From positions 39,502-103,501 of the forward strand of contig CAXBYW010000002.1 in NCBI GenBank assembly GCA_963980225.1: 64,000 bases of DNA, written 5' to 3'. Under the pieces are notes generated by a model, which saw only the letters and a program-made list of their open reading frames with translations, was not told where the DNA came from and searched no databases. The translations under genes were made by a program, and so were the position numbers. Positions 6,191-48,188 of the stretch are shown here, piece after piece. Source of the stretch: an uncultured bacterium. Lineage in GTDB: Bacteria > Patescibacteriota > Microgenomatia > UBA1400 > MFAQ01. The stretch's first letter is position 1, and every line of letters starts with the position of its first letter.

Positions 6191-7486
6191 ATGAGAGATA
6201 AAATATTTGATCTAATTGATAGAGAAGGAAAAAGACAGAAGAATGAGTTGAATCTTATTCCTTCAGAAAATCGTGTTAGTAAAGAGGTGTCCTTGGCCTT
6301 GGGAAGTTGTTTGGTGAATAAGTACGCAGAAGGAGTGGTGGGCAAGAGATTCTATCAAGGCAACCGAGAGATTGACAAGATCGAAAAGACAGCTGTAGAT
6401 AGAGCCAAGAAACTGTTTGGTGTGCCCCATGCTAATGTCCAGCCGTACTCTGGGTCCCCGGCTAACAGTGCGGTTCAGTTTGGCTTGCTTGATAAGGGAG
6501 ACACGGTAATGGGTCTGTCTTTGTCTTCTGGTGGACACTTGACTCATGGTCATCCGGACATCACCTTTTCTGGCAGGTGGTTTAATTCCGTCCAGTACGG
6601 AGTGGGTAAGGATGGCCGATTGGACTACAAGGAGATAATGGTAATGGCTAAGAAAGCATCTCCCAAACTTATTATCGCTGGAACCACAGCTTACTCAAGA
6701 ATAATTGACTGGGAAAAGTTTAGAGAGATTGCTGATGAAGTAGGAGCTTATCTGATGGCGGACATCTCTCATATTGCCGGACTGGTGGTGGCGGGAGAGC
6801 ACCCTTCACCTTCAAGGTGGGTTGATGTTATAACCACAACGACACACAAAACCTTACGAGGACCAAGAGGAGCGATGATAATGGTGACTGATAGAGGCCT
6901 CAAGAAGGACCCTGATATGGCTAGAAGAATCGACAGAGCTGTCTTCCCTGGTCTTCAGGGTGGACCACATATACACACGATTGCTGGAATTGCAGTAGCC
7001 TTAAAGGAAGCAGAGAGTGATAGTTTCAAGGAGTATGCACATCAGGTAGTAAAAAATGCTTCGGTGTTAGCCCAAGAGTTGACTAAGTTAGGTTTTGATT
7101 TGGTATCTGGAGGGACTGACAATCATCTGATGTTGGTGGATTTAAGAAACAAAGAAGTGTCTGGTTGGGTGGCAGCTTGGGCACTGGAAGTTGCAGGAAT
7201 AGTGGTGAATTACAATTCTGTTCCACACGATACGTCCTCACCTTTGTATCCGGCTGGAATTAGACTGGGGACGCCGTTTTTAACTACTAGGGGGATGAAA
7301 GAGACAGAGATGGTAAGAATCGCTGAGTGGATAAAGTTGGTGGTTGATCATATTAAGGGTGAGAAACTACCTACGGACAAGGTCAAACGAAGAGAGTTAG
7401 TTAAGAGCTTTAAAAAGAGAGTGTTTGATGATAAGTATTTGGTGGAGTTACGTAAAGAGGTGGTGGCTTTTTCGAGAAAGTACTGA
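6191..7486 (+). CDS. glyA: serine hydroxymethyltransferase
   Basis: GGHLTHGHP, TTTTHKTLRGPRGAMI PLP-lysine region. Length 431 aa. Confidence 0.95.
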   Translation: MRDKIFDLIDREGKRQKNELNLIPSENRVSKEVSLALGSCLVNKYAEGVVGKRFYQGNREIDKIEKTAVDRAKKLFGVPHANVQPYSGSPANSAVQFGLLDKGDTVMGLSLSSGGHLTHGHPDITFSGRWFNSVQYGVGKDGRLDYKEIMVMAKKASPKLIIAGTTAYSRIIDWEKFREIADEVGAYLMADISHIAGLVVAGEHPSPSRWVDVITTTTHKTLRGPRGAMIMVTDRGLKKDPDMARRIDRAVFPGLQGGPHIHTIAGIAVALKEAESDSFKEYAHQVVKNASVLAQELTKLGFDLVSGGTDNHLMLVDLRNKEVSGWVAAWALEVAGIVVNYNSVPHDTSSPLYPAGIRLGTPFLTTRGMKETEMVRIAEWIKLVVDHIKGEKLPTDKVKRRELVKSFKKRVFDDKYLVELRKEVVAFSRKY

Positions 7487-12821: not shown

Positions 12822-12840
12822 TTTGTAGTATATTTAGTGT

Positions 12841-13413
12841 ATGAAGAAGTTGGCTTGGGTGGTATCTAGGCTTTTTGACCCGGTAATCGAGATTCCGATG
12901 ATCCTTTCGGTGGCGGTCTGGTGGGCATTGACCAATGGATTGAGATGGCGTTTTTTGATATTTCTTTTGATAGTGGATGCTTTGCTTCCAGCTTTGTACA
13001 TGTTCTATGGTTTGAAGAAAGGTTTTATTTCTGACTGGGATATAACAAAAAAGAAGGAGAGAAGAAGTTTGTATATTGTTACTTCCTTGACTCACTTAGT
13101 GGGAGTGGTTTATGCATTTTTCTTGGGTAAGACAGAGCTGGCCTCGATTTTGTTGGTATTTTGGAGTTTGGCAGTGGTATTTGCGGTAGTGACTTATTTC
13201 TGGAAGATTTCGGTTCACGCTGGAGTCAATGGCGTCATGTTGGCCTTTTTTAACCATTTCTGGGGCTGGGAAAGCTACTGGTGGTTGACGTTGGTTTTAC
13301 TGTTGGTTTTGTGGTCTAGGGTGGAGATTAAGAAACATAGTTGGTTACAGGTGATGGTGGGAGCAGGTTTGGCGGTTGCCTGGGTGGAGATGGGTTTAAA
13401 TTGGCTGCTTTAG
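12841..13413 (+). CDS. PAP2-superfamily-like membrane phosphatase (possible undecaprenyl-diphosphatase type)
   Basis: Polytopic membrane protein. ISVHAG (PSGH-like) and SRVEIKKH (SRxxxxxH) motifs. Confidence 0.4.
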   Translation: MKKLAWVVSRLFDPVIEIPMILSVAVWWALTNGLRWRFLIFLLIVDALLPALYMFYGLKKGFISDWDITKKKERRSLYIVTSLTHLVGVVYAFFLGKTELASILLVFWSLAVVFAVVTYFWKISVHAGVNGVMLAFFNHFWGWESYWWLTLVLLLVLWSRVEIKKHSWLQVMVGAGLAVAWVEMGLNWLL

Positions 13414-38638: not shown

Positions 38639-39766
38639 ATGAAGAATTTCTTGATAGGACTAATGGTTTCGGTGATTGTACTTTTTTCTGCATTTGGAGG
38701 AGCCTTAGCAGACAGACTGTTTGTTATTAAGCCTTTGGATAAAATTTTTAAAAGAAGTGAGGTTGTGGTGGAAGAAAAGGTAAAAATACTAAGTGAGGAT
38801 GGTGGAGTAGTTGAAGTGGTAGAGAGAGTAAGTCCAGCGGTAGTGACGGTAGCGGTCATAGGCCAGACCCAAGGAAGAATAGTATTTGATGCTTTTGAGT
38901 TTTTTGGATTTAGACAAGAAGAACCGGAGATCGTACAACAAGATATTGGTTCTGGGTTTGTAGTCGATGGCCAAGAAGGGGTGGTGGTAACTAACAAGCA
39001 TGTAGTAGCTAGAGATGGAGTGAAGTATGTGGTGATTGATAAAGAAGGAGAGGAGTATGAGGTCAAGGATTTGTATAGGGACCCAGTGAATGACTTAGCG
39101 ATACTAAAGATTGAGGCTGAAAAGAGTTTGGAGGCAATTACGCTGGGTGATTCTGACCTTTTAAAGGTGGGCCAGAGAGTAATAGCTATTGGTACAGCTT
39201 TGGGAGAGTTTAGACACACAGTGACTACAGGGGTGATTTCTGGTTTGGGTAGGGGAATAAGTGCGGGTAATGGTTCCTTAGGGAGTCTTGAGAAAATTGA
39301 TGATGTCATCCAGACAGATGCCGCTATTAACCCTGGAAATTCTGGAGGACCTTTGCTTGATATAAATGGTCGGGTAATAGGAGTAAATGTAGCTGTGGCT
39401 GGTGGGGGAGAAAATATTGGTTTTGCTATTCCAATTAATGTAGTTAGGGAATCACTTGATAACTTTAAGGAGACAGGAAGCTTTGATAGGGTACAGTTGG
39501 GGGTGAAGTACAGGATGATAGATAAAGATGTGGCTTTACTGAATGATGTGCCTGCAGGAGCTTACATTGTGGAGGTGATGGAGGATTCAGTAGCAGCAAA
39601 AAATGGAGTTTTGGTAGGAGATATCATTATCAAACTTGAAAATGAAGGAGTAGTTGAAGTAGATGGTGGCCTGGCTGGTTTAATAGGTAAGTTGAAGGTG
39701 GGAGAAAATATTAAGATTGAATTATGGAGAAATGGTCAAATTTTGGTCCTAAATATTAAGCTTTAA
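38639..39766 (+). CDS. htrA: HtrA/DegP-family trypsin-like serine protease with PDZ domain
   Basis: N-terminal TM. TNKHVV (His), DLAILK (Asp), GNSGGPLLDINGRVIGVN (Ser) catalytic triad motifs. C-terminal PDZ. Confidence 0.85.
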   Translation: MKNFLIGLMVSVIVLFSAFGGALADRLFVIKPLDKIFKRSEVVVEEKVKILSEDGGVVEVVERVSPAVVTVAVIGQTQGRIVFDAFEFFGFRQEEPEIVQQDIGSGFVVDGQEGVVVTNKHVVARDGVKYVVIDKEGEEYEVKDLYRDPVNDLAILKIEAEKSLEAITLGDSDLLKVGQRVIAIGTALGEFRHTVTTGVISGLGRGISAGNGSLGSLEKIDDVIQTDAAINPGNSGGPLLDINGRVIGVNVAVAGGGENIGFAIPINVVRESLDNFKETGSFDRVQLGVKYRMIDKDVALLNDVPAGAYIVEVMEDSVAAKNGVLVGDIIIKLENEGVVEVDGGLAGLIGKLKVGENIKIELWRNGQILVLNIKL

Positions 39767-40649
39767 GGACTTTTTCTAGTTGACCTTCCATGACTTCTTT
39801 TAGGTTGTGCCAGCTTTTGTTTAGCCTGTGGTCGGTGAGTCTATTCTGGGGAAAGTTGTAGGTTTTTATCTTTTCTGATCTCATACCTCTACCTACGGCT
39901 TCTGATCTGGTGGCTTCGATTTCTTTTAGCTTTTCTTCTTCTTGCTGTTGCCAGAGTTTTGATCGCAGCATGTCTAAGGCTATTTCTTTGTTTTGAACTT
40001 GAGACCTTTCTTGACGAACAGATACAGTCATCTGGGTAGGTTTGTGGGTAAGACGAACAGCAGTGTTGACCTTGTTTACATTTTGTCCACCTGGTCCACC
40101 GGCTGTAGTGAAAGCCCATTCTAAGTCTGATAACTTGAGTTGGACTAAGTCCTTTTTAATTTCTGGTAAAACGGTTACTGTGGCAGTAGAGGTGTGGATT
40201 CTACCTTGTGACTCTGTGGCGGGGACTCTTTGGACTCTATGGACCCCAGCTTCATTTTTGAAGGTTTCAAAGCAACCTAGGGGCCAGTCAGAGCTGTTGG
40301 CTTTTTTGAGCTTGATTGTACTAGTGTCGATTTCTTCTATTTTGAAGTTATGGTTATTAGCAAATCTTACATACATTCGTAGTAGGTCTTGCGCAAAGAT
40401 TTTGGCTTCATCACCACCAGCAGCAGCTCTTATCTCTATGACGACTGGGGCATTTTTGGGAACTTGTGAAACTTTTTCTTTCTGTTTTTCTACCTGTTGG
40501 CCAGCTTTTTCTAGTTGTTTTATCTGATCTTGAAGTTTTTTGATTTCTTCTTTGGCTAGGGGACCGAGTTCAGGATCATTTACCAGGTCCTGGTGAGATT
40601 TGACTTTGTTTTGGAGGCGATCTATTTCTGGTTTAAGAGAGTTGTTCAT
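39756..40649 (-). CDS. prfA: peptide chain release factor 1 (N-terminally short, 297 aa)
   Basis: RVPATE (PxT tripeptide anticodon motif, RF1-type). GGQ ([12 protein letters not shown]). C-terminal [14 protein letters not shown]. Confidence 0.85.
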
Positions 40650-40939
40650 TTTCCGACTGGGGTGACGATAAGCATGTCTTTTAAAGACTTAGCTGGTCCC
40701 TGATCGTCACTTTTAGCCTTAGTTTTCTTTTTATACTTACCAGCAGCTTTTCTCTTGGCTAAGAATTTATCTACTCTACCTAGGGTATCTATATATTTCA
40801 TCTCTCCTGTGTAGAAAGGGTGGCATTTTGAGCAGATTTCAACTTGGATCTCTTTAGCGGTAGAACCTGTTTCTATTGTGGCTCCACAGGCACAGTTAAT
40901 GGTCATTTTATGGTATTCAGGATGTATTTTGGCTTTCAT
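40646..40939 (-). CDS. rpmE: 50S ribosomal protein L31 with long basic C-terminal extension
   Basis: [19 protein letters not shown]...[10 protein letters not shown] zinc-ribbon L31 signature. Confidence 0.85.
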
Positions 40940-41003
40940 ACAGAGGCTATTTTAACATAAAGATGATTTACACACTAGTAGTTTGTCGATTTTGAAGGTA
41001 AGT

Positions 41004-41032
41004 TTGACAGAAATACGGTCTTGTAGTATATT
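41004..41032 (+). promoter_or_regulatory. sigma70-type promoter of tRNA-like/ncRNA unit 1
   Basis: TTGACA (41004-41009), 17-nt spacer, TATATT (41027-41032). The CTTGTAGTATATTGAT block is repeated at unit 2. Confidence 0.6.
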
Positions 41033-41166
41033 GATGGAGTCATGTGTGAATTGGCAAACCTCCTTTTATTGAAGCCGTGTTGACACTTAGCTTCCAAGCT
41101 AGATAAATTTATTTGCCTCAATTTATCTAGCCGCACTTATTGCACATTTATTTGTATTTGGTTGAT

Positions 41167-41239
41167 GCGGGATTAGCTTAGTTGGCAGAGCACTTTCCTG
41201 CTCGGGAAGAGGTCACAGGTTCGAGTCCTGTATCCTGCT
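41167..41239 (+). tRNA. tRNA-like element 1 (class I cloverleaf; anticodon loop CUGCUCG lacks purine-37; identity unclear)
   Basis: 7-bp acceptor GCGGGAT/ATCCTGC. D-arm TAGCTTAGTTGGCAGAGC. Canonical T-arm ACAGG-TTCGAGT-CCTGT. Anticodon stem CTTTC/GGAAG with loop CTGCTCG (anticodon would be GCU, but the short variable arm is incompatible with tRNA-Ser). Confidence 0.5.
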
Positions 41240-41577
41240 TTTTAAAGGAGGCATAATCTCCTTTAAAAAATGATATAGGTAAGTGTCTAAGGTTTGATTT
41301 GAGATGAGTCAGATTTTGGCCTCCAACTTACCTAACCCTGATCTTGTCGTCTGAGGATAGATGTAGATACTGTCAATAGACAGTAATTTGCAGATGGGAT
41401 GTCCCACCGAAGACGACAAAACAACCAACAAGGAATGAAAACATATAACGCCGTAGTTTTCACTCCTTGATCGATCAAGGAAGTTCCTCGGTAGGATGAA
41501 ACCTTGTTGGTTGTTAAAAACTTATCCGTGTAGGATTAAGACTCGATTCTGAGTTTTGAGCTTACACGGTTTTTTTT
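41240..41577 (+). ncRNA. structured noncoding RNA co-transcribed downstream of tRNA-like element 1, ending in intrinsic terminator (41526-41577)
   Basis: No ORF. Nested stems (ggtaagt/acttacc; ttgtcgtct/agacgacaa; aaccaacaagg/ccttgttggtt; tccttgatc/gatcaagga). Terminator ccgtgtag...cttacacgg plus T8. Confidence 0.45.
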
Positions 41578-41597
41578 ATGGCAAGAAAGTAAACATA

Positions 41598-41626
41598 TTG
41601 ACAGAGATAAAAGCTTGTAGTATATT
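41598..41626 (+). promoter_or_regulatory. sigma70-type promoter of tRNA-like/ncRNA unit 2
   Basis: TTGACA (41598-41603), 17-nt spacer, TATATT (41621-41626). Same CTTGTAGTATATTGAT block as unit 1. Confidence 0.6.
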
Positions 41627-41769
41627 GATCAAACTGACAGATGTCAGTTATAGGAGGAGATCGGTACCTCCCGAATTTGGTGGAAGAGTCACCGTAAACT
41701 TCTAAGTTGGATAACTATCCATGGAAGGTTATCCAACCGCACTTATTGCACATTTTTATTTTTTTAAAC

Positions 41770-41848
41770 GCGGGCTTAGCTCAGCTGGTAGAGCATTCCG
41801 GACATCACTGAAAGGAAAAGGTCACAGGTTCGAATCCTGTAGTCCGCT
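41770..41848 (+). tRNA. tRNA-like element 2 with enlarged, non-canonical anticodon arm (23 nt instead of 17)
   Basis: Acceptor GCGGGCT/AGTCCGC. D-arm TAGCTCAGCTGGTAGAGC. T-arm ACAGG-TTCGAAT-CCTGT. Region between D and variable arms is ttccggacatcactgaaaggaaa, which cannot form a 5-bp stem plus 7-nt loop. Confidence 0.4.
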
Positions 41849-42144
41849 TTAAAGAGGGTGGTTAATCTCTCTTTATAAGAGGTTGAATAGGTTGCTACAA
41901 CCTGATCACAAAACCTCGTCGTCTAAGAACGGTTTAAGTATGCTGCTTTACAAAGATTTACCAGCCTAAACCGCTAATGAGACAGTAGCTCTCAGCGAAG
42001 ACGACAACGACTAACGAGGAAGTGAGGCATCCACTTCATTGGATCAAGGAGTTTTCCGTTTGGGAATGAACCTTGTTAGTCGTTAAAAAATCATCTGGAT
42101 AAAAGTAAGGCTCGATTCTGAGTTCTGAAATTATCCAGTTTTTT
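41849..42144 (+). ncRNA. structured noncoding RNA paralog downstream of tRNA-like element 2, ending in intrinsic terminator (42095-42144)
   Basis: Paralogous to 41240-41577. Conserved blocks: tcgtcgtct...gaagacgacaa, ggatcaagga, gaaccttgtt. Compensatory stem changes (gactaacgagg/ccttgttagtc). Terminator ctggataa...ttatccag plus T6 with the same loop gctcgattctgagttctga. Confidence 0.45.
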
Positions 42145-42155
42145 ATGGGAAAAAA

Positions 42156-43058
42156 CTAACGTTTTTCTGCTATGTAAACACCGAAAATGATGATGGCAAT
42201 GGAGAATATGTTTAGTAAAGAGATTGATTCTGAGAGTAATAGTATGGCTGTTGGTACGGAGAAGATCGGTTGGAGGTAGGTGAAAAGAGAGGCTTCTGAT
42301 GCTTCGATTTTGTCTTGACCAATAAGATAGAGGGTAAGTCCTATGATAGAGCCAAAGACACCCATATAGACGATTGCGGCTGCAGGCCAGAAACCAGTTG
42401 CTAATTGAAAAGGCTGGCCAGATATTAGGGCGATAGCTCCAAAAGAAATTAAACCAACCCAGAAGCTTATGTGGGTGACCAACCATTTATTTATACCAAC
42501 GTAGTGCTTTTTAGCTAAAAGAAAGTAGGCGGCCATACATACGTTTTGGCCTAAGACTAATAGATTTCCGGTAACAGTGCCAGTAAAACCACTGTTTCTC
42601 ACTAATGGTTCACCAACTAAGAATAGAGTTCCAATTAAGGCTAATATAGTACCTTTAAGCTCATGCTTTTGTTCCTTTTCCTTGAAAAATAGGATGCCAC
42701 CCAAGATAACTAGGATAGGCCAGGTGATGGCGATAAGGGAGGACTCAATAGCTGAAGTTCGGTTTAATCCTTGATAGAGCAGGAAGAGAGCAAGGAAGGT
42801 GCCGAGAGCTTCTAAAGGAACTATTTTAAGTATGTTTTTTAGGTGAATCTGTTTTTTAAACTTAGAATCCTTAAGGAATAGATAAATGATGATCGGAAAA
42901 GAAAAGAGAGTGGCCAAAAAGAACCTACCAATCAAGAAACTGTTGGGAGTTAGACCTGCGTCGAAACCTTTCTTGACGATGGGCAGAGCTAAACCCCAGA
43001 CGAATGTGTTACCTAAAAGTGCTAGATAAGCAATCAGGCGGGTTTTTGTGAGTTTCAT
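42156..43058 (-). CDS. EamA/DMT-family transporter
   Basis: 10 TM helices in two repeated halves typical of drug/metabolite transporter (EamA) proteins. Confidence 0.7.
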   Translation of the reverse strand: MKLTKTRLIAYLALLGNTFVWGLALPIVKKGFDAGLTPNSFLIGRFFLATLFSFPIIIYLFLKDSKFKKQIHLKNILKIVPLEALGTFLALFLLYQGLNRTSAIESSLIAITWPILVILGGILFFKEKEQKHELKGTILALIGTLFLVGEPLVRNSGFTGTVTGNLLVLGQNVCMAAYFLLAKKHYVGINKWLVTHISFWVGLISFGAIALISGQPFQLATGFWPAAAIVYMGVFGSIIGLTLYLIGQDKIEASEASLFTYLQPIFSVPTAILLLSESISLLNIFSIAIIIFGVYIAEKR

Positions 43059-44299
43059 TACTTTAGCTTGGAGAGGAGTTGTTTTAGAGTTAATGTTTCT
43101 TGTTTACCACTGATCATGTCTTTAAGAGTGACTTTACCGACTTTTTTCTCTTCCTCGCCTAAAATAATAATGAAGGGAACATTCATTTGATTGGCGTACT
43201 TTAGTTGTTTGCCGATATTGTCGTTTGCAGGATAGACCTCGGTATTTATCCCGGCCTTACGAAGGCTGTTGGCTACCTTTAAAGACTCGGTCTTAAATTC
43301 AGGAGAAAAGATGGAAACCAGTACTTTAGCGGTAGTTTTTGAACTTTCAAGTAACTCTAAGTTTTTGACGGCTTCTACTATGCGATCGAAACCAAAGGCT
43401 ATACCTACGGCTGGTACTTTAGGGCCACCTAGATCGCTTATTAAGTTATCGTAACGGCCACCGCCACCAAATGAACCAATAGGAATTTCTGGGATGATGA
43501 CTTCAAAGATCATGCCGGTGTAGTAGTCTAGACCACGAGCTAGGGTAGGTTCAAAGACTAGACTGTCTTTGGGAACACCAAGGGCTGTGGTTAAGGAGAT
43601 TATCTCTTTAAGGTTGGGAGTGGGGGAGGCTGATTTTATTTGTTTTAGAGCTTTTTTAGCCGTTTCTTTAGTGAGGCCTTTTTTTACTAGTTCGGCTTCA
43701 ACTTCAGCAACTGTTTTTTTATCAAGCTTGTCTACTGTCTGGATGATGGACATGATGTCTAACTTAGGGGTAGTGAAGGGTTTTAGTTGGTCAAAAAGTA
43801 TCTGGCGGTCGTTTATTTTGATCTTTATAGTAGGGAAGTTTAGGTTTTTGAAGGAAAAGTAGGTGCAAGCAACGGTTTCGGCATCTGATGTGGCGTCATT
43901 GGTGCCAAAGATGTCGATATCACACTGAGTAAACTCTCTGTATCTGCCTTTTTGAGGTTTGTCAGCCCTGAAAACACTTTGGATCTGGTATCGTCTGAAG
44001 AACTTAGGTAGTTTTGAGCCATACTGGGCTAGTAATCTAGCTGTGGGTACGGTTTGATCGTAACGTAAACCAATTTTTCTACTGCCTCGGTCCTTGAAGG
44101 TGTATACAAGTTTATCTGCCTCTTCACCGTACTTACCTAAAAGTAGAGATGCGTACTCTAAAGTGGGTGTTTCTACTGGTTCAAAACCAAAAGTTTCAAA
44201 GGTTTTGATGATGTTTTCCAAGACATTGTCTCTTATCTTTTTTTCTTCTGGAAGGAAGTCTCTAAACCCTTTAAGGTTTTGGGGTGTGTCTTTACTCAT
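43058..44299 (-). CDS. hisS: histidyl-tRNA synthetase
   Basis: LKGFRDFLPEE motif 1 region, FERIVE/GGGRYDNL class II motifs. C-terminal anticodon-binding domain. Confidence 0.9.
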   Translation of the reverse strand: MSKDTPQNLKGFRDFLPEEKKIRDNVLENIIKTFETFGFEPVETPTLEYASLLLGKYGEEADKLVYTFKDRGSRKIGLRYDQTVPTARLLAQYGSKLPKFFRRYQIQSVFRADKPQKGRYREFTQCDIDIFGTNDATSDAETVACTYFSFKNLNFPTIKIKINDRQILFDQLKPFTTPKLDIMSIIQTVDKLDKKTVAEVEAELVKKGLTKETAKKALKQIKSASPTPNLKEIISLTTALGVPKDSLVFEPTLARGLDYYTGMIFEVIIPEIPIGSFGGGGRYDNLISDLGGPKVPAVGIAFGFDRIVEAVKNLELLESSKTTAKVLVSIFSPEFKTESLKVANSLRKAGINTEVYPANDNIGKQLKYANQMNVPFIIILGEEEKKVGKVTLKDMISGKQETLTLKQLLSKLK

Positions 44300-47950: not shown

Positions 47951-48104
47951 TTCTTTTTGCTCCCTTTCTTTTGTTGAAGAACTAGTTTTTTTGATATAGA
48001 GTGTCTATATCATTCAAGTTGGGAGATTATAGCATTATGAGATAAATATCACAAATTATGGGGCTCTTTAGATACACAAGACTAAGGTTTTTAAGCAGTA
48101 ATTG

Positions 48105-48188
48105 TGCCGCGGGAGGGGATCGAACCCTCATGGTGAAATCACCATTGGTTTTTGAGACCAACCTGTATACCAGTTCCAGCACCGCGGC
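48105..48188 (-). tRNA. tRNA-Leu (anticodon CAA), class II
   Basis: Reverse complement gives GCCGCGG acceptor, anticodon stem TTGGT/ACCAA with loop CTCAAAA, long variable arm TGGTGATTTCACCAT, T-arm GAGGG-TTCGATC-CCCTC. No encoded CCA. Confidence 0.8.

Follow-up and report, generated by a model that had tools for sequence, protein, structure and literature searches.

What is encoded by the 1216 bases that separate rpmE from an EamA transporter gene in the genome of an uncultured Patescibacteriota bacterium (Microgenomatia; UBA1400; MFAQ01)? The stretch lies in a 64,000-nt segment of contig CAXBYW010000002.1 (assembly GCA_963980225.1), which was analysed as a whole and is called the window here, and it holds two paralogous units on the + strand, unit 1 at 41004-41577 and unit 2 at 41598-42144, each running from promoter to terminator. 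That two like-built units occupy this gap had been proposed in a first-pass annotation, and their alignment over 625 columns with a mean column identity of 77% bears this out. The results described below indicate that each unit is, with high probability, a real, selected and undescribed tRNA-derived non-coding RNA (ncRNA) gene. The fuller account that we favour, namely tandem and lineage-restricted ncRNA paralogues which descend from a tRNA operon and retain tRNA-shaped modules as processing handles, is one that we hold with about as much belief as doubt, and the processing-handle mechanism in particular we put forward a little more tentatively still.

Both units follow the same order of modules, i.e. 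a promoter, a structured leader of ~130 nt, a tRNA-shaped module, a multi-domain trailer (~335 nt in unit 1 and ~300 nt in unit 2) and a terminator consisting of a hairpin and a U-run, so that each copy amounts to a gene of ~570 bases. The tRNA-shaped module, T1, lies on the + strand at 41167..41239 in unit 1 (73 nt) and at 41770..41848 in unit 2 (79 nt), and was called Ser-GCU and Met-CAU respectively by ARAGORN. A tRNA-like cloverleaf had been predicted at this position, and the shape is clearly there: the Rfam tRNA model RF00005 matched the two modules with 56.1 and 51.4 bits, and both display 7/7 acceptor pairs, a D arm, 5/5 T-stem pairs and a TΨC-type loop, with D and T loops of standard form. 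The prediction needs refinement at the anticodon arm, as neither module carries the canonical combination of a 5-bp stem, a 7-nt loop, U33 and a purine at position 37. In unit 1 this arm reads CUUUC-CUGCUCG-GGAAG, with C37 and a possible C32-G38 pair. Bacterial tRNA-Ser needs a long variable arm and the variable region of this module is only 5 nt, which makes the Ser-GCU call incompatible with it; nor does the G3·U70 pair (41169 and 41236) accord with the isotype that the anticodon would imply. G3·U70 is the main identity element of alanyl-tRNA synthetase (AlaRS), and the pair is present neither in T1 of unit 2 nor in the T1 modules of relatives. The anticodon arm of unit 2 T1 has a 4-bp stem (UUCC/GGAA) and a 14-nt loop and is left unaligned by RF00005 ([19]), and the Met-CAU call requires a mismatched stem, A33 and C37. 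To judge by their sequences, the window cloverleaves are tRNA-derived modules with non-decoding anticodon arms and not ordinary tRNAs.

As an internal control for a normal tRNA gene layout, we used the ordinary tRNA-Leu(CAA) gene of the window (48104-48188, minus strand). TATAAT lies 10 nt upstream of this gene, which lacks structured flanks and is kept in the syntenic block of the relatives, adjoining efp and dnaB. Annotation pipelines will label the modules of the units as tRNA-Ser, tRNA-Met, tRNA-Lys, tRNA-Ile or 'undetermined', and tRNA inventories will be distorted or inflated as a result.

Relatives were found through EamA homologues, after which the syntenic contigs were fetched, and these supplied eight further units beyond the two of the window. 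The EamA homologues bore the names of Patescibacteria or of the Microgenomates-type groups Woesebacteria, Pacebacteria and Chisholmbacteria. Two units were present in L001 (identical to L002 and L047; EamA identity 80%) and in L044 (76%), and one in L007/L006 (76%). At least one was present in L003-L005 (80%), L043 (90%) and L054 (72%), the contigs of which end inside a unit. No units were found in L008/L009 (76%), L010 (75%), L045/L046 (73%) and L053 (58%), or in the P0015 contig (69%), the last being judged from a gap of 269 nt. Where the site is empty, EamA and rpmE are directly adjacent or overlap. The arrangement thus recurs in close relatives at the same site, and is not general to the candidate phyla radiation.

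Across the 10 units we counted 13 cloverleaf modules, with at least one kept in every unit; T1 is present in six units and a second module, T2, in seven. All 7/7 acceptor and 5/5 T-stem pairs are formed in 12 of the 13, the pairs covary, and the T-loop hardly varies (TTCGAAT, or this with one base changed). RF00005 scored 12 modules at 37-64 bits and one below threshold (24.8 bits), genuine tRNA-Leu genes scoring 54-57 bits. The anticodon arms of the family comprise 5-nt loops on stems of 6-7 bp, 8-nt loops, a 14-nt loop or long rods, and the only canonical one among the 13 modules belongs to T2 of L054.

This L054 module (3242-3167 of its contig, minus strand) is a near-canonical tRNA-Asn-like T2 with U1-A72, the loop CUGUUAA and G73, a GUU anticodon and G73 forming the tRNA-Asn identity set. 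Its D stem and anticodon stem are set apart by one additional base, and it is embedded between the same leader and the same H3 junction and terminator that surround the non-decoding modules elsewhere. Since this T2 is tRNA-Asn-like and the remaining T2 loops (UUCUUAGG, UUACUAGA and CCAUUAAA) read as mutated Asn loops, the family probably descends from a tRNA operon. We also considered whether the modules with 8-nt loops, for which ARAGORN returned the anticodons ctta, acta and atta, are stop-codon or quadruplet suppressor tRNAs. This reading was rejected because the UUA/CUA that these loops share is best explained as a remnant of the CUGUUAA loop of the L054 tRNA-Asn-like module, and because the feature is not conserved across the modules.

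Evidence for selection comes from the H3 junction and the terminator. H3 of unit 1 (41421..41514, + strand) is closed by a stem of 13-14 bp, ACAACCAACAAGG/CCTTGTTGGTTGT, and H3 of unit 2 (42007..42083, + strand) by ACGACTAACGAGG/CCTTGTTAGTCGT with one G·U pair. The terminators, also on the + strand, lie at 41526..41577 in unit 1 (stem CCGTGTAG/CTTACACGG, the apical hairpin ACUCG-AUUC-UGAGU and then T8) and at 42095..42144 in unit 2 (stem CTGGATAA/TTATCCAG, the conserved apical hairpin and then T6). The stems cited in the first-pass annotation are present as written, both the long compensatory stem, aaccaacaagg/ccttgttggtt versus gactaacgagg/ccttgttagtc, and the terminator stems, ccgtgtag/cttacacgg versus ctggataa/ttatccag, around a conserved apical element (GACTCGATTCTGAGTTTTGA versus GGCTCGATTCTGAGTTCTGA). 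A covariance model of H3 plus terminator, R1, was built from the two window copies only; it finds the domain in all eight other units (E values 7e-12 to 9e-3), placing H3 in all 10, and matches neither the empty loci nor any other part of the 64-kb window, apart from a few lower-scoring reverse-strand echoes of palindromic stems. In the nine true rows of the alignment derived with R1, canonical pairs fill 269 of 277 pair cells (97%) and compensatory double changes occur in 30 of 37 pairs, counts which are somewhat inflated by the fitting of a covariance-model alignment to the structure. None of 1000 shuffles reached the observed pair values, and shifting the 3' partner by 1-3 columns left only 24-49% of pairs canonical. 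Despite the structure-fitted alignment, every unit has long, perfect stems, and all 14 pairs of the H3 closing stem are kept with covariation.

These stems also bear on whether the pairing is selected in RNA or in DNA. Among the pair cells of H3 and the terminator, 27 are G·U or U·G and one is A·C or C·A, an excess which shows that pairing is selected in the + strand RNA and not in the DNA, and the orientation of the tRNA modules agrees with a + strand reading. This ratio speaks against a DNA-level interpretation in which the units act as a bidirectional terminator for hisS-EamA and as a new promoter region for rpmE-prfA. Several features of the locus would suit such an element. The unit 2 terminator and the stop codon of the convergent EamA gene are 12 nt apart, both terminators have A-runs in front of them and could therefore act both ways, and an extended -10-like element for rpmE, TGTTAAAAT (40949-40957, minus strand, ~10 nt upstream of the rpmE start), is kept in unit-bearing loci, where its + strand form TATTTTAACA was seen in L001, L007 and L044. 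Where units are present the operon is split and rpmE-prfA has its own promoter; in the unit-free loci EamA and rpmE, abutting or overlapping, stand as one operon. However, a terminator or an insulator would not call for cloverleaves, a conserved + strand promoter and a three-way junction spread over 1.2 kb, and together with the G·U excess this leaves the DNA-level interpretation with very little probability.

Given the divergence of the relatives, persistence of the units is itself informative. The synonymous divergence (dS) of EamA between the window and every relative was at least 1.46 or could not be computed through saturation, and over such a distance unconstrained DNA would no longer be recognizable. 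Promoter, leader motif, H3, terminator and cloverleaves have all persisted nevertheless and are therefore under purifying selection. With R1 matches in 10 units and the compensatory pairs described above, the case made earlier for a functional structured RNA family over a decaying duplicate is upheld, and the relatives strengthen it considerably.

The alternative most directly opposed to this is that an ordinary tRNA operon (tRNA-Asn plus another tRNA) is in decay, the window copies being pseudogenes and their flanks leftover leader and trailer. In its favour, T2 of L054 resembles a functional tRNA-Asn, the other T2 loops look like mutated versions of its loop, the T2 position of the window is degenerate and the units have been wholly lost in several relatives. 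It does not explain why, at saturated dS, promoters, terminators and the leader motif persist and cloverleaf and H3 stems are maintained by compensatory changes, nor why the changes cluster in the anticodon arm and keep pairing instead of falling at random. The normal tRNA-Leu(CAA) gene of the window, in addition, has no flanks of this kind. Patescibacteria genomes are very small (PMC13011429), and a streamlined genome would be unlikely to retain 1.2 kb of dead DNA; by the same token, it is unlikely that a conserved non-coding stretch of 1.2 kb, equipped with two strong promoters, serves no purpose. The sequence comparisons therefore largely rule out simple pseudogene decay, and we consider a decaying operon improbable, although less so than the DNA-level element.

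The signals at the two ends of each unit are conserved as well. The promoters, TTGACA-N17-TATATT at 41004..41032 and 41598..41626 on the + strand, match the consensus at 11/12 positions each and have the block CTTGTAGTATATT in common, as the first-pass annotation had said, and the same promoter type heads 10/10 units. The promoter scan taken overall found four against 4.7 expected in shuffles, i.e. no enrichment, so that the promoter argument rests on position and on conservation in the 10 units. A near-identical -10 block, TTTGTAGTATATT (12822-12834), lies just upstream of an ordinary open reading frame (ORF) of 190 amino acids (12841-13413). The shared block was therefore not accepted as diagnostic of the family; (T)TGTAGTATATT probably belongs to strong promoters of this genome in general and is not peculiar to the RNA units. 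At the other end, a hairpin followed by at least six T residues closes 10/10 units; a simple terminator scan missed both window terminators, their loops being longer than its 8-nt limit.

The leaders had been described as ~130 nt long and ending in a hairpin, and from their likely start sites we obtained ~128 nt for unit 1 (41039..41166, + strand; hairpin 41098-41131) and ~137 nt for unit 2 (41633..41769, + strand; hairpin 41706-41737). The hairpins have 10-12 bp in the window and are followed by the invariant block CCGCACTTATTGCACATTT, the motif TTATTGCACATTT standing at 41137-41149 and 41743-41755 ahead of a U-rich tract. Across the family, a sequence-conserved motif, UUAUUGCAC, stands between leader hairpin and U-rich tract, and hairpin plus motif, TTATT(T)G(C/T)AC, occur in 9/10 units, the hairpins differing in sequence and the motif being kept. 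The hairpin apices carry palindromes of 6-8 nt that differ by unit (CCAUGG/CCCAUGGG, CCGCGG and UCUAGA), at 41718-41725 of the window (UCCAUGGA), ~7868-7861 and ~7285-7278 of L001 and ~2368-2361 of L044. These palindromes are unable to pair within one loop and may form kissing-loop dimers or reflect a palindrome at the DNA level; there are only three distinct variants, and statistically the pattern is not strong.

The trailers had been described as ~300 nt of ORF-free, heavily paired RNA, and both parts of that description hold. Against dinucleotide shuffles the trailers gave z = -10.1 (unit 1) and -4.25 (unit 2), and the whole units -7.7 and -5.0 respectively, with minimum free energy (MFE) z-scores for whole units ranging from -2.7 to -11 across the family. 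No conserved ORF is present in the units and no frame-specific conservation indicative of a small protein was found; gaps in the alignment of unit 1 with unit 2 are not multiples of three, and peptide similarity between the units is seen simultaneously on both strands and in several frames, a pattern of nucleotide conservation and not of an ORF. What has to be added is that the trailers are modular and partly tRNA-derived. A hairpin directly follows T1 at 41240..41270 in unit 1, UUUUUAAAGGAGG-CAUAA-UCUCCUUUAAAAA, and at 41850..41876 in unit 2, both on the + strand, and a counterpart with a different sequence stands after the first tRNA-shaped module in 7/7 units examined (the six with T1 plus L007, the sole module of which is T2-type). 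In the MFE fold H1 is a long hairpin in unit 1 (41276..41334, + strand), and a hairpin, H1, was also folded in unit 2 (41879..41917, + strand). H2 was folded as a multibranch structure closed by GTCGTCT/AGACGAC in unit 1 (41346..41417, + strand), and the same closing stem is found in unit 2 (41918..42005, + strand). H2 occupies the position of T2 in the relatives and, on that ground, may be a degenerate T2; that of unit 1 was not recognized as a tRNA by ARAGORN or Rfam.

In the hairpin after the first module, one strand is Shine-Dalgarno-like (GGAGG/GGGAG) and its partner is of the CCUCC type, at 41245-41265 of the window, ~7273-7253 of L003, ~2242-2222 of L044 and ~6083-6064 of L007. In L003, its loop and 3' strand read GAUCACCUCC, which is identical to the conserved 3' end of 16S rRNA. 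Similar GGAG...CUCC-like hairpins occur in leaders and in H3 (AAGGAGUU).

The genes that surround the units are all on the minus strand: prfA (39756-40649) and rpmE, encoding ribosomal protein L31 (40646-40939; PF01197, 99.6 bits), which is divergent from unit 1, and the EamA/DMT transporter gene (42156-43058; PF00892, 129 bits), which is convergent with unit 2, followed by hisS (43058-44299). There is no + strand gene 3' of either unit, and a cis-regulatory leader such as a riboswitch, T-box or ribosomal-protein leader was rejected for this reason. Nor did we find reverse transcriptase, nuclease, integrase, transposase or phage genes near the units, which deprives retron-, guide-RNA- and mobile-element-type readings of their defining partner. 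Two further candidates were tried and rejected: a CsrA sponge, as GGA is only 1.4-fold enriched, and an antisense target of the conserved H3 strand CCUUGUUGGU, the sole exact complement of which elsewhere in the window lies inside a long ORF, a chance-level count.

The relatives also record something of the history of the family. On a rough neighbour-joining tree of EamA, unit-bearing genomes are spread across the clade, the empty ones are nested inside it and the outgroup is empty, which suggests that the units were ancestrally present and later lost. The units of the relatives are mosaics of the same module types, shuffled among units. In L001 (8030-6898) the rpmE-proximal unit resembles, with 78% likeness over 185 nt of leader, the EamA-proximal unit of L044 (2530-1280), and the other two units likewise resemble each other; this swapped order suggests recombination or gene conversion between tandem copies. 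Contigs of several assemblies made independently end inside or just upstream of a unit, in L003 (7473), L004 (4904), L005 (2733), L043 (2656) and L054 (3465), and L006 has an N-run gap with duplicated flanks at the unit site (6451-6548). Tandem, partly similar units evidently break short-read assemblies, and the copy numbers given above as 'at least one' are lower bounds.

Outside this set, the exact leader motif together with GCGG was sought in 185,579 species genomes; the 32 matches, in unrelated taxa, were pattern-only and attributable to chance. The species that have exactly these elements in their units (those of the window, L001 and L044) are thus absent from that collection, although diverged relatives may be in it. 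A stricter motif in the JGI metagenomes returned one contig, identical to L001, and two pattern scans of viral contigs gave chance matches only. By these means the family is seen only in a small Microgenomates-like clade and only at one locus, although the patterns are narrow and diverged relatives are possible.

How might such a gene work? In the account that we favour, a strong sigma-70-type promoter would drive a + strand transcript of ~510-540 nt ending at the intrinsic terminator. The tRNA-shaped modules would be kept as substrates of tRNA maturation, their acceptor/T-arm 'top half' being recognized whatever the anticodon. RNase P would act on the 5' side and RNase Z or 3' exonucleases on the 3' side, and the CCA-adding enzyme may also take part. 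Such cuts would release stable pieces, namely a leader RNA, an H3-terminator RNA of ~150 nt and one or two tRNA mimics, and a role unrelated to decoding would fall to one or more of the non-tRNA pieces or to the tRNA shape as such. RNase P and RNase Z recognize the acceptor/T-arm helix, and the processing-handle idea draws on this established enzymology and on the precedents discussed below. The corresponding substrate features are present: the acceptor/T stack has 12 bp, the 5' leader is rich in A/U and the 3' trailer in U, and from these cleavage is predicted.

The same modules admit a second interpretation, that the tRNA mimics are the active product, matured, CCA-ended and perhaps aminoacylated, acting outside decoding, e.g. 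as amino-acid donors for aminoacylation of lipids or the cell wall, or as regulators or decoys for tRNA-binding proteins, with leader and trailer serving expression and stability. It would account for covariation in the acceptor, D and T arms alike and not only in the 'top half', for the presence of at least one module in every unit and for anticodon arms that have been remodelled to stable short-loop or rod-like hairpins and have not simply decayed, and T1 of unit 1 does carry the AlaRS identity pair. Acceptor identity is not conserved, however, as G3·U70 occurs in one of six T1 modules and N73 may be U, G, A or C, and no Fem/MprF-type or other tRNA-using gene lies nearby. Selection on H3 and on the leader motif would also be left unexplained. 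On balance we regard active mimics as unlikely, though a more serious contender than decay.

Several observations weigh against the processing-handle account as well. Transcription and processing are predictions from the sequence, and the inflation of the pair counts noted above has to be borne in mind. A processing handle leaves the conservation of the D arm unexplained, as well as the reason for tRNA-type processing in a gene that has its own promoter and terminator. The gene context (hisS, EamA, rpmE and prfA) is purely housekeeping and suggests no partner protein or target. The leader is missing from one unit (L003) and the T2 position in the window is not tRNA-shaped, so that no non-tRNA module is universal except H3 and the terminator. 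Finally, the family is confined to one locus in one narrow clade, and because several close relatives have no units it is dispensable.

If the modules are processing handles, the units would be a bacterial chromosomal case of an RNA strategy of eukaryotes, viruses and organelles, and the relatives would show the stepwise conversion of a tRNA operon into an ncRNA gene. If the modules are themselves active, they would be a new kind of tRNA mimic. A bolder form of the latter is that the units represent a new class of bacterial tRNA-mimic RNA, with non-decoding cloverleaves matured, perhaps aminoacylated, and employed as regulators, decoys or donors. The mimics may then be tethered to, or released from, an ornate scaffold of leader and H3 that may self-associate via kissing loops. 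We give this bolder form the same low standing as active mimics in general; were it true, the family would be the Patescibacteria counterpart of the GOLLD-type ornate RNAs that embed tRNAs, with a cellular and not a phage role.

There is, finally, the question of whether a known class has been missed. With Rfam 15, only the tRNA model matched, whether the whole window was searched at the gathering threshold or the limits were relaxed (E up to 10 in 40800-42300 and up to 5 in six relatives). These negatives include RNase P, signal recognition particle (SRP), 6S and transfer-messenger (tmRNA) RNAs, GOLLD, ROOL, OLE, raiA, group I introns, T-box and Y-RNA-like RNAs. RNase P RNA, SRP RNA and 6S RNA gave no match at the gathering threshold, nor any with E relaxed to 10, and GOLLD and ROOL covariance models none at E up to 10 in 40800-42300 or 5 in the six relatives. 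No tmRNA, including two-piece forms, was found by ARAGORN or Rfam, and no tag ORF is conserved. The failure to match RNase P, SRP, 6S or tmRNA reported in the first-pass annotation is therefore repeated here, and the Rfam and ARAGORN searches that it had proposed revealed no known family covering the whole unit. A missed tRNA group I intron, GOLLD/ROOL RNA, two-piece tmRNA or RNase P RNA, or else a mobile element or phage remnant, might still be entertained, as tRNA-Asn genes of Patescibacteria often have group I introns, some of which escape RF00028, the model of the intron core (PMC13011429), while tRNAs are found close to GOLLD and ROOL and can be embedded in the former (PMC12286853); copy number varies, too, and contigs break at the units. 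Against a missed class stand the tRNA-only result of the searches, with no RF00028 match in the window region or six relatives, and the position of the structured RNA, which starts after N73, 3' of the acceptor end of contiguous, uninterrupted cloverleaves. A mobile element was rejected, since only this single site was ever occupied and no second insertion site was seen, no integrase, transposase or phage gene lies nearby, the viral-contig scans gave chance matches only and the EamA tree implies ancestral presence with loss. We rate this whole group of explanations as remote, on a par with the DNA-level element.

The units can nevertheless be set beside several known systems. RNAs derived from tRNA-operon spacers, e.g. 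the 3' external transcribed spacer of glyW-cysT-leuZ, which is a small RNA (sRNA) sponge, are likewise pieces co-transcribed with tRNAs and released by tRNA-processing nucleases (predicted here), and a tRNA-operon descent is likely for the units. In contrast to such spacers, however, the tRNA modules of the units are non-decoding, the spacers are far longer and elaborately folded, and no Hfq-type target pairing can be proposed. A closer parallel in logic is offered by non-decoding cloverleaf mimics, i.e. mascRNA at the 3' end of MALAT1, the tRNA-miRNA transcripts of murine gammaherpesvirus 68 and the t-elements of plant mitochondria, which are retained because cuts by RNase P and RNase Z define the ends of the neighbouring ncRNA. 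Those signals are eukaryotic, viral or organellar, whereas the units are bacterial and chromosomal, with processing that is so far a prediction; we know of no bacterial chromosomal family of mascRNA-like cloverleaf processing signals. Both tmRNA and YrlA resemble the units in combining tRNA mimicry with extra structured domains in a bacterial ncRNA. Their tRNA-like domains are partial and assembled from both RNA ends, whereas the cloverleaves of the units are complete and contiguous, and the units have no tag ORF, no rsr neighbour and no tmRNA or Y-RNA-like match in Rfam.

GOLLD and ROOL are, like the units, large (~500-800 nt), highly structured bacterial ncRNAs found beside tRNA genes (PMC12286853, PMC5737381), and GOLLD sometimes embeds tRNAs covalently in its linker (PMC12286853). 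The units differ from them in occupying a chromosomal housekeeping locus and not a phage or prophage, in having non-decoding cloverleaves, and in being modular, fast-evolving and confined to a narrow clade of Patescibacteria. A further mark of GOLLD and ROOL is their assembly into homo-oligomeric nanocages. The genes for tRNA-Asn and for tRNA-Asp of Patescibacteria that contain group I introns share the phylum, an Asn-type sequence beside a structured RNA of ~300 nt and an anticodon that standard tools mis-call (PMC13011429). Their introns sit at 35/36 inside the anticodon loop (PMC13011429), whereas the cloverleaves of the units are uninterrupted, the structured RNA is downstream and RF00028 does not match. 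The units thus belong to none of the sequence families compared here, but their likely logic has precedents.

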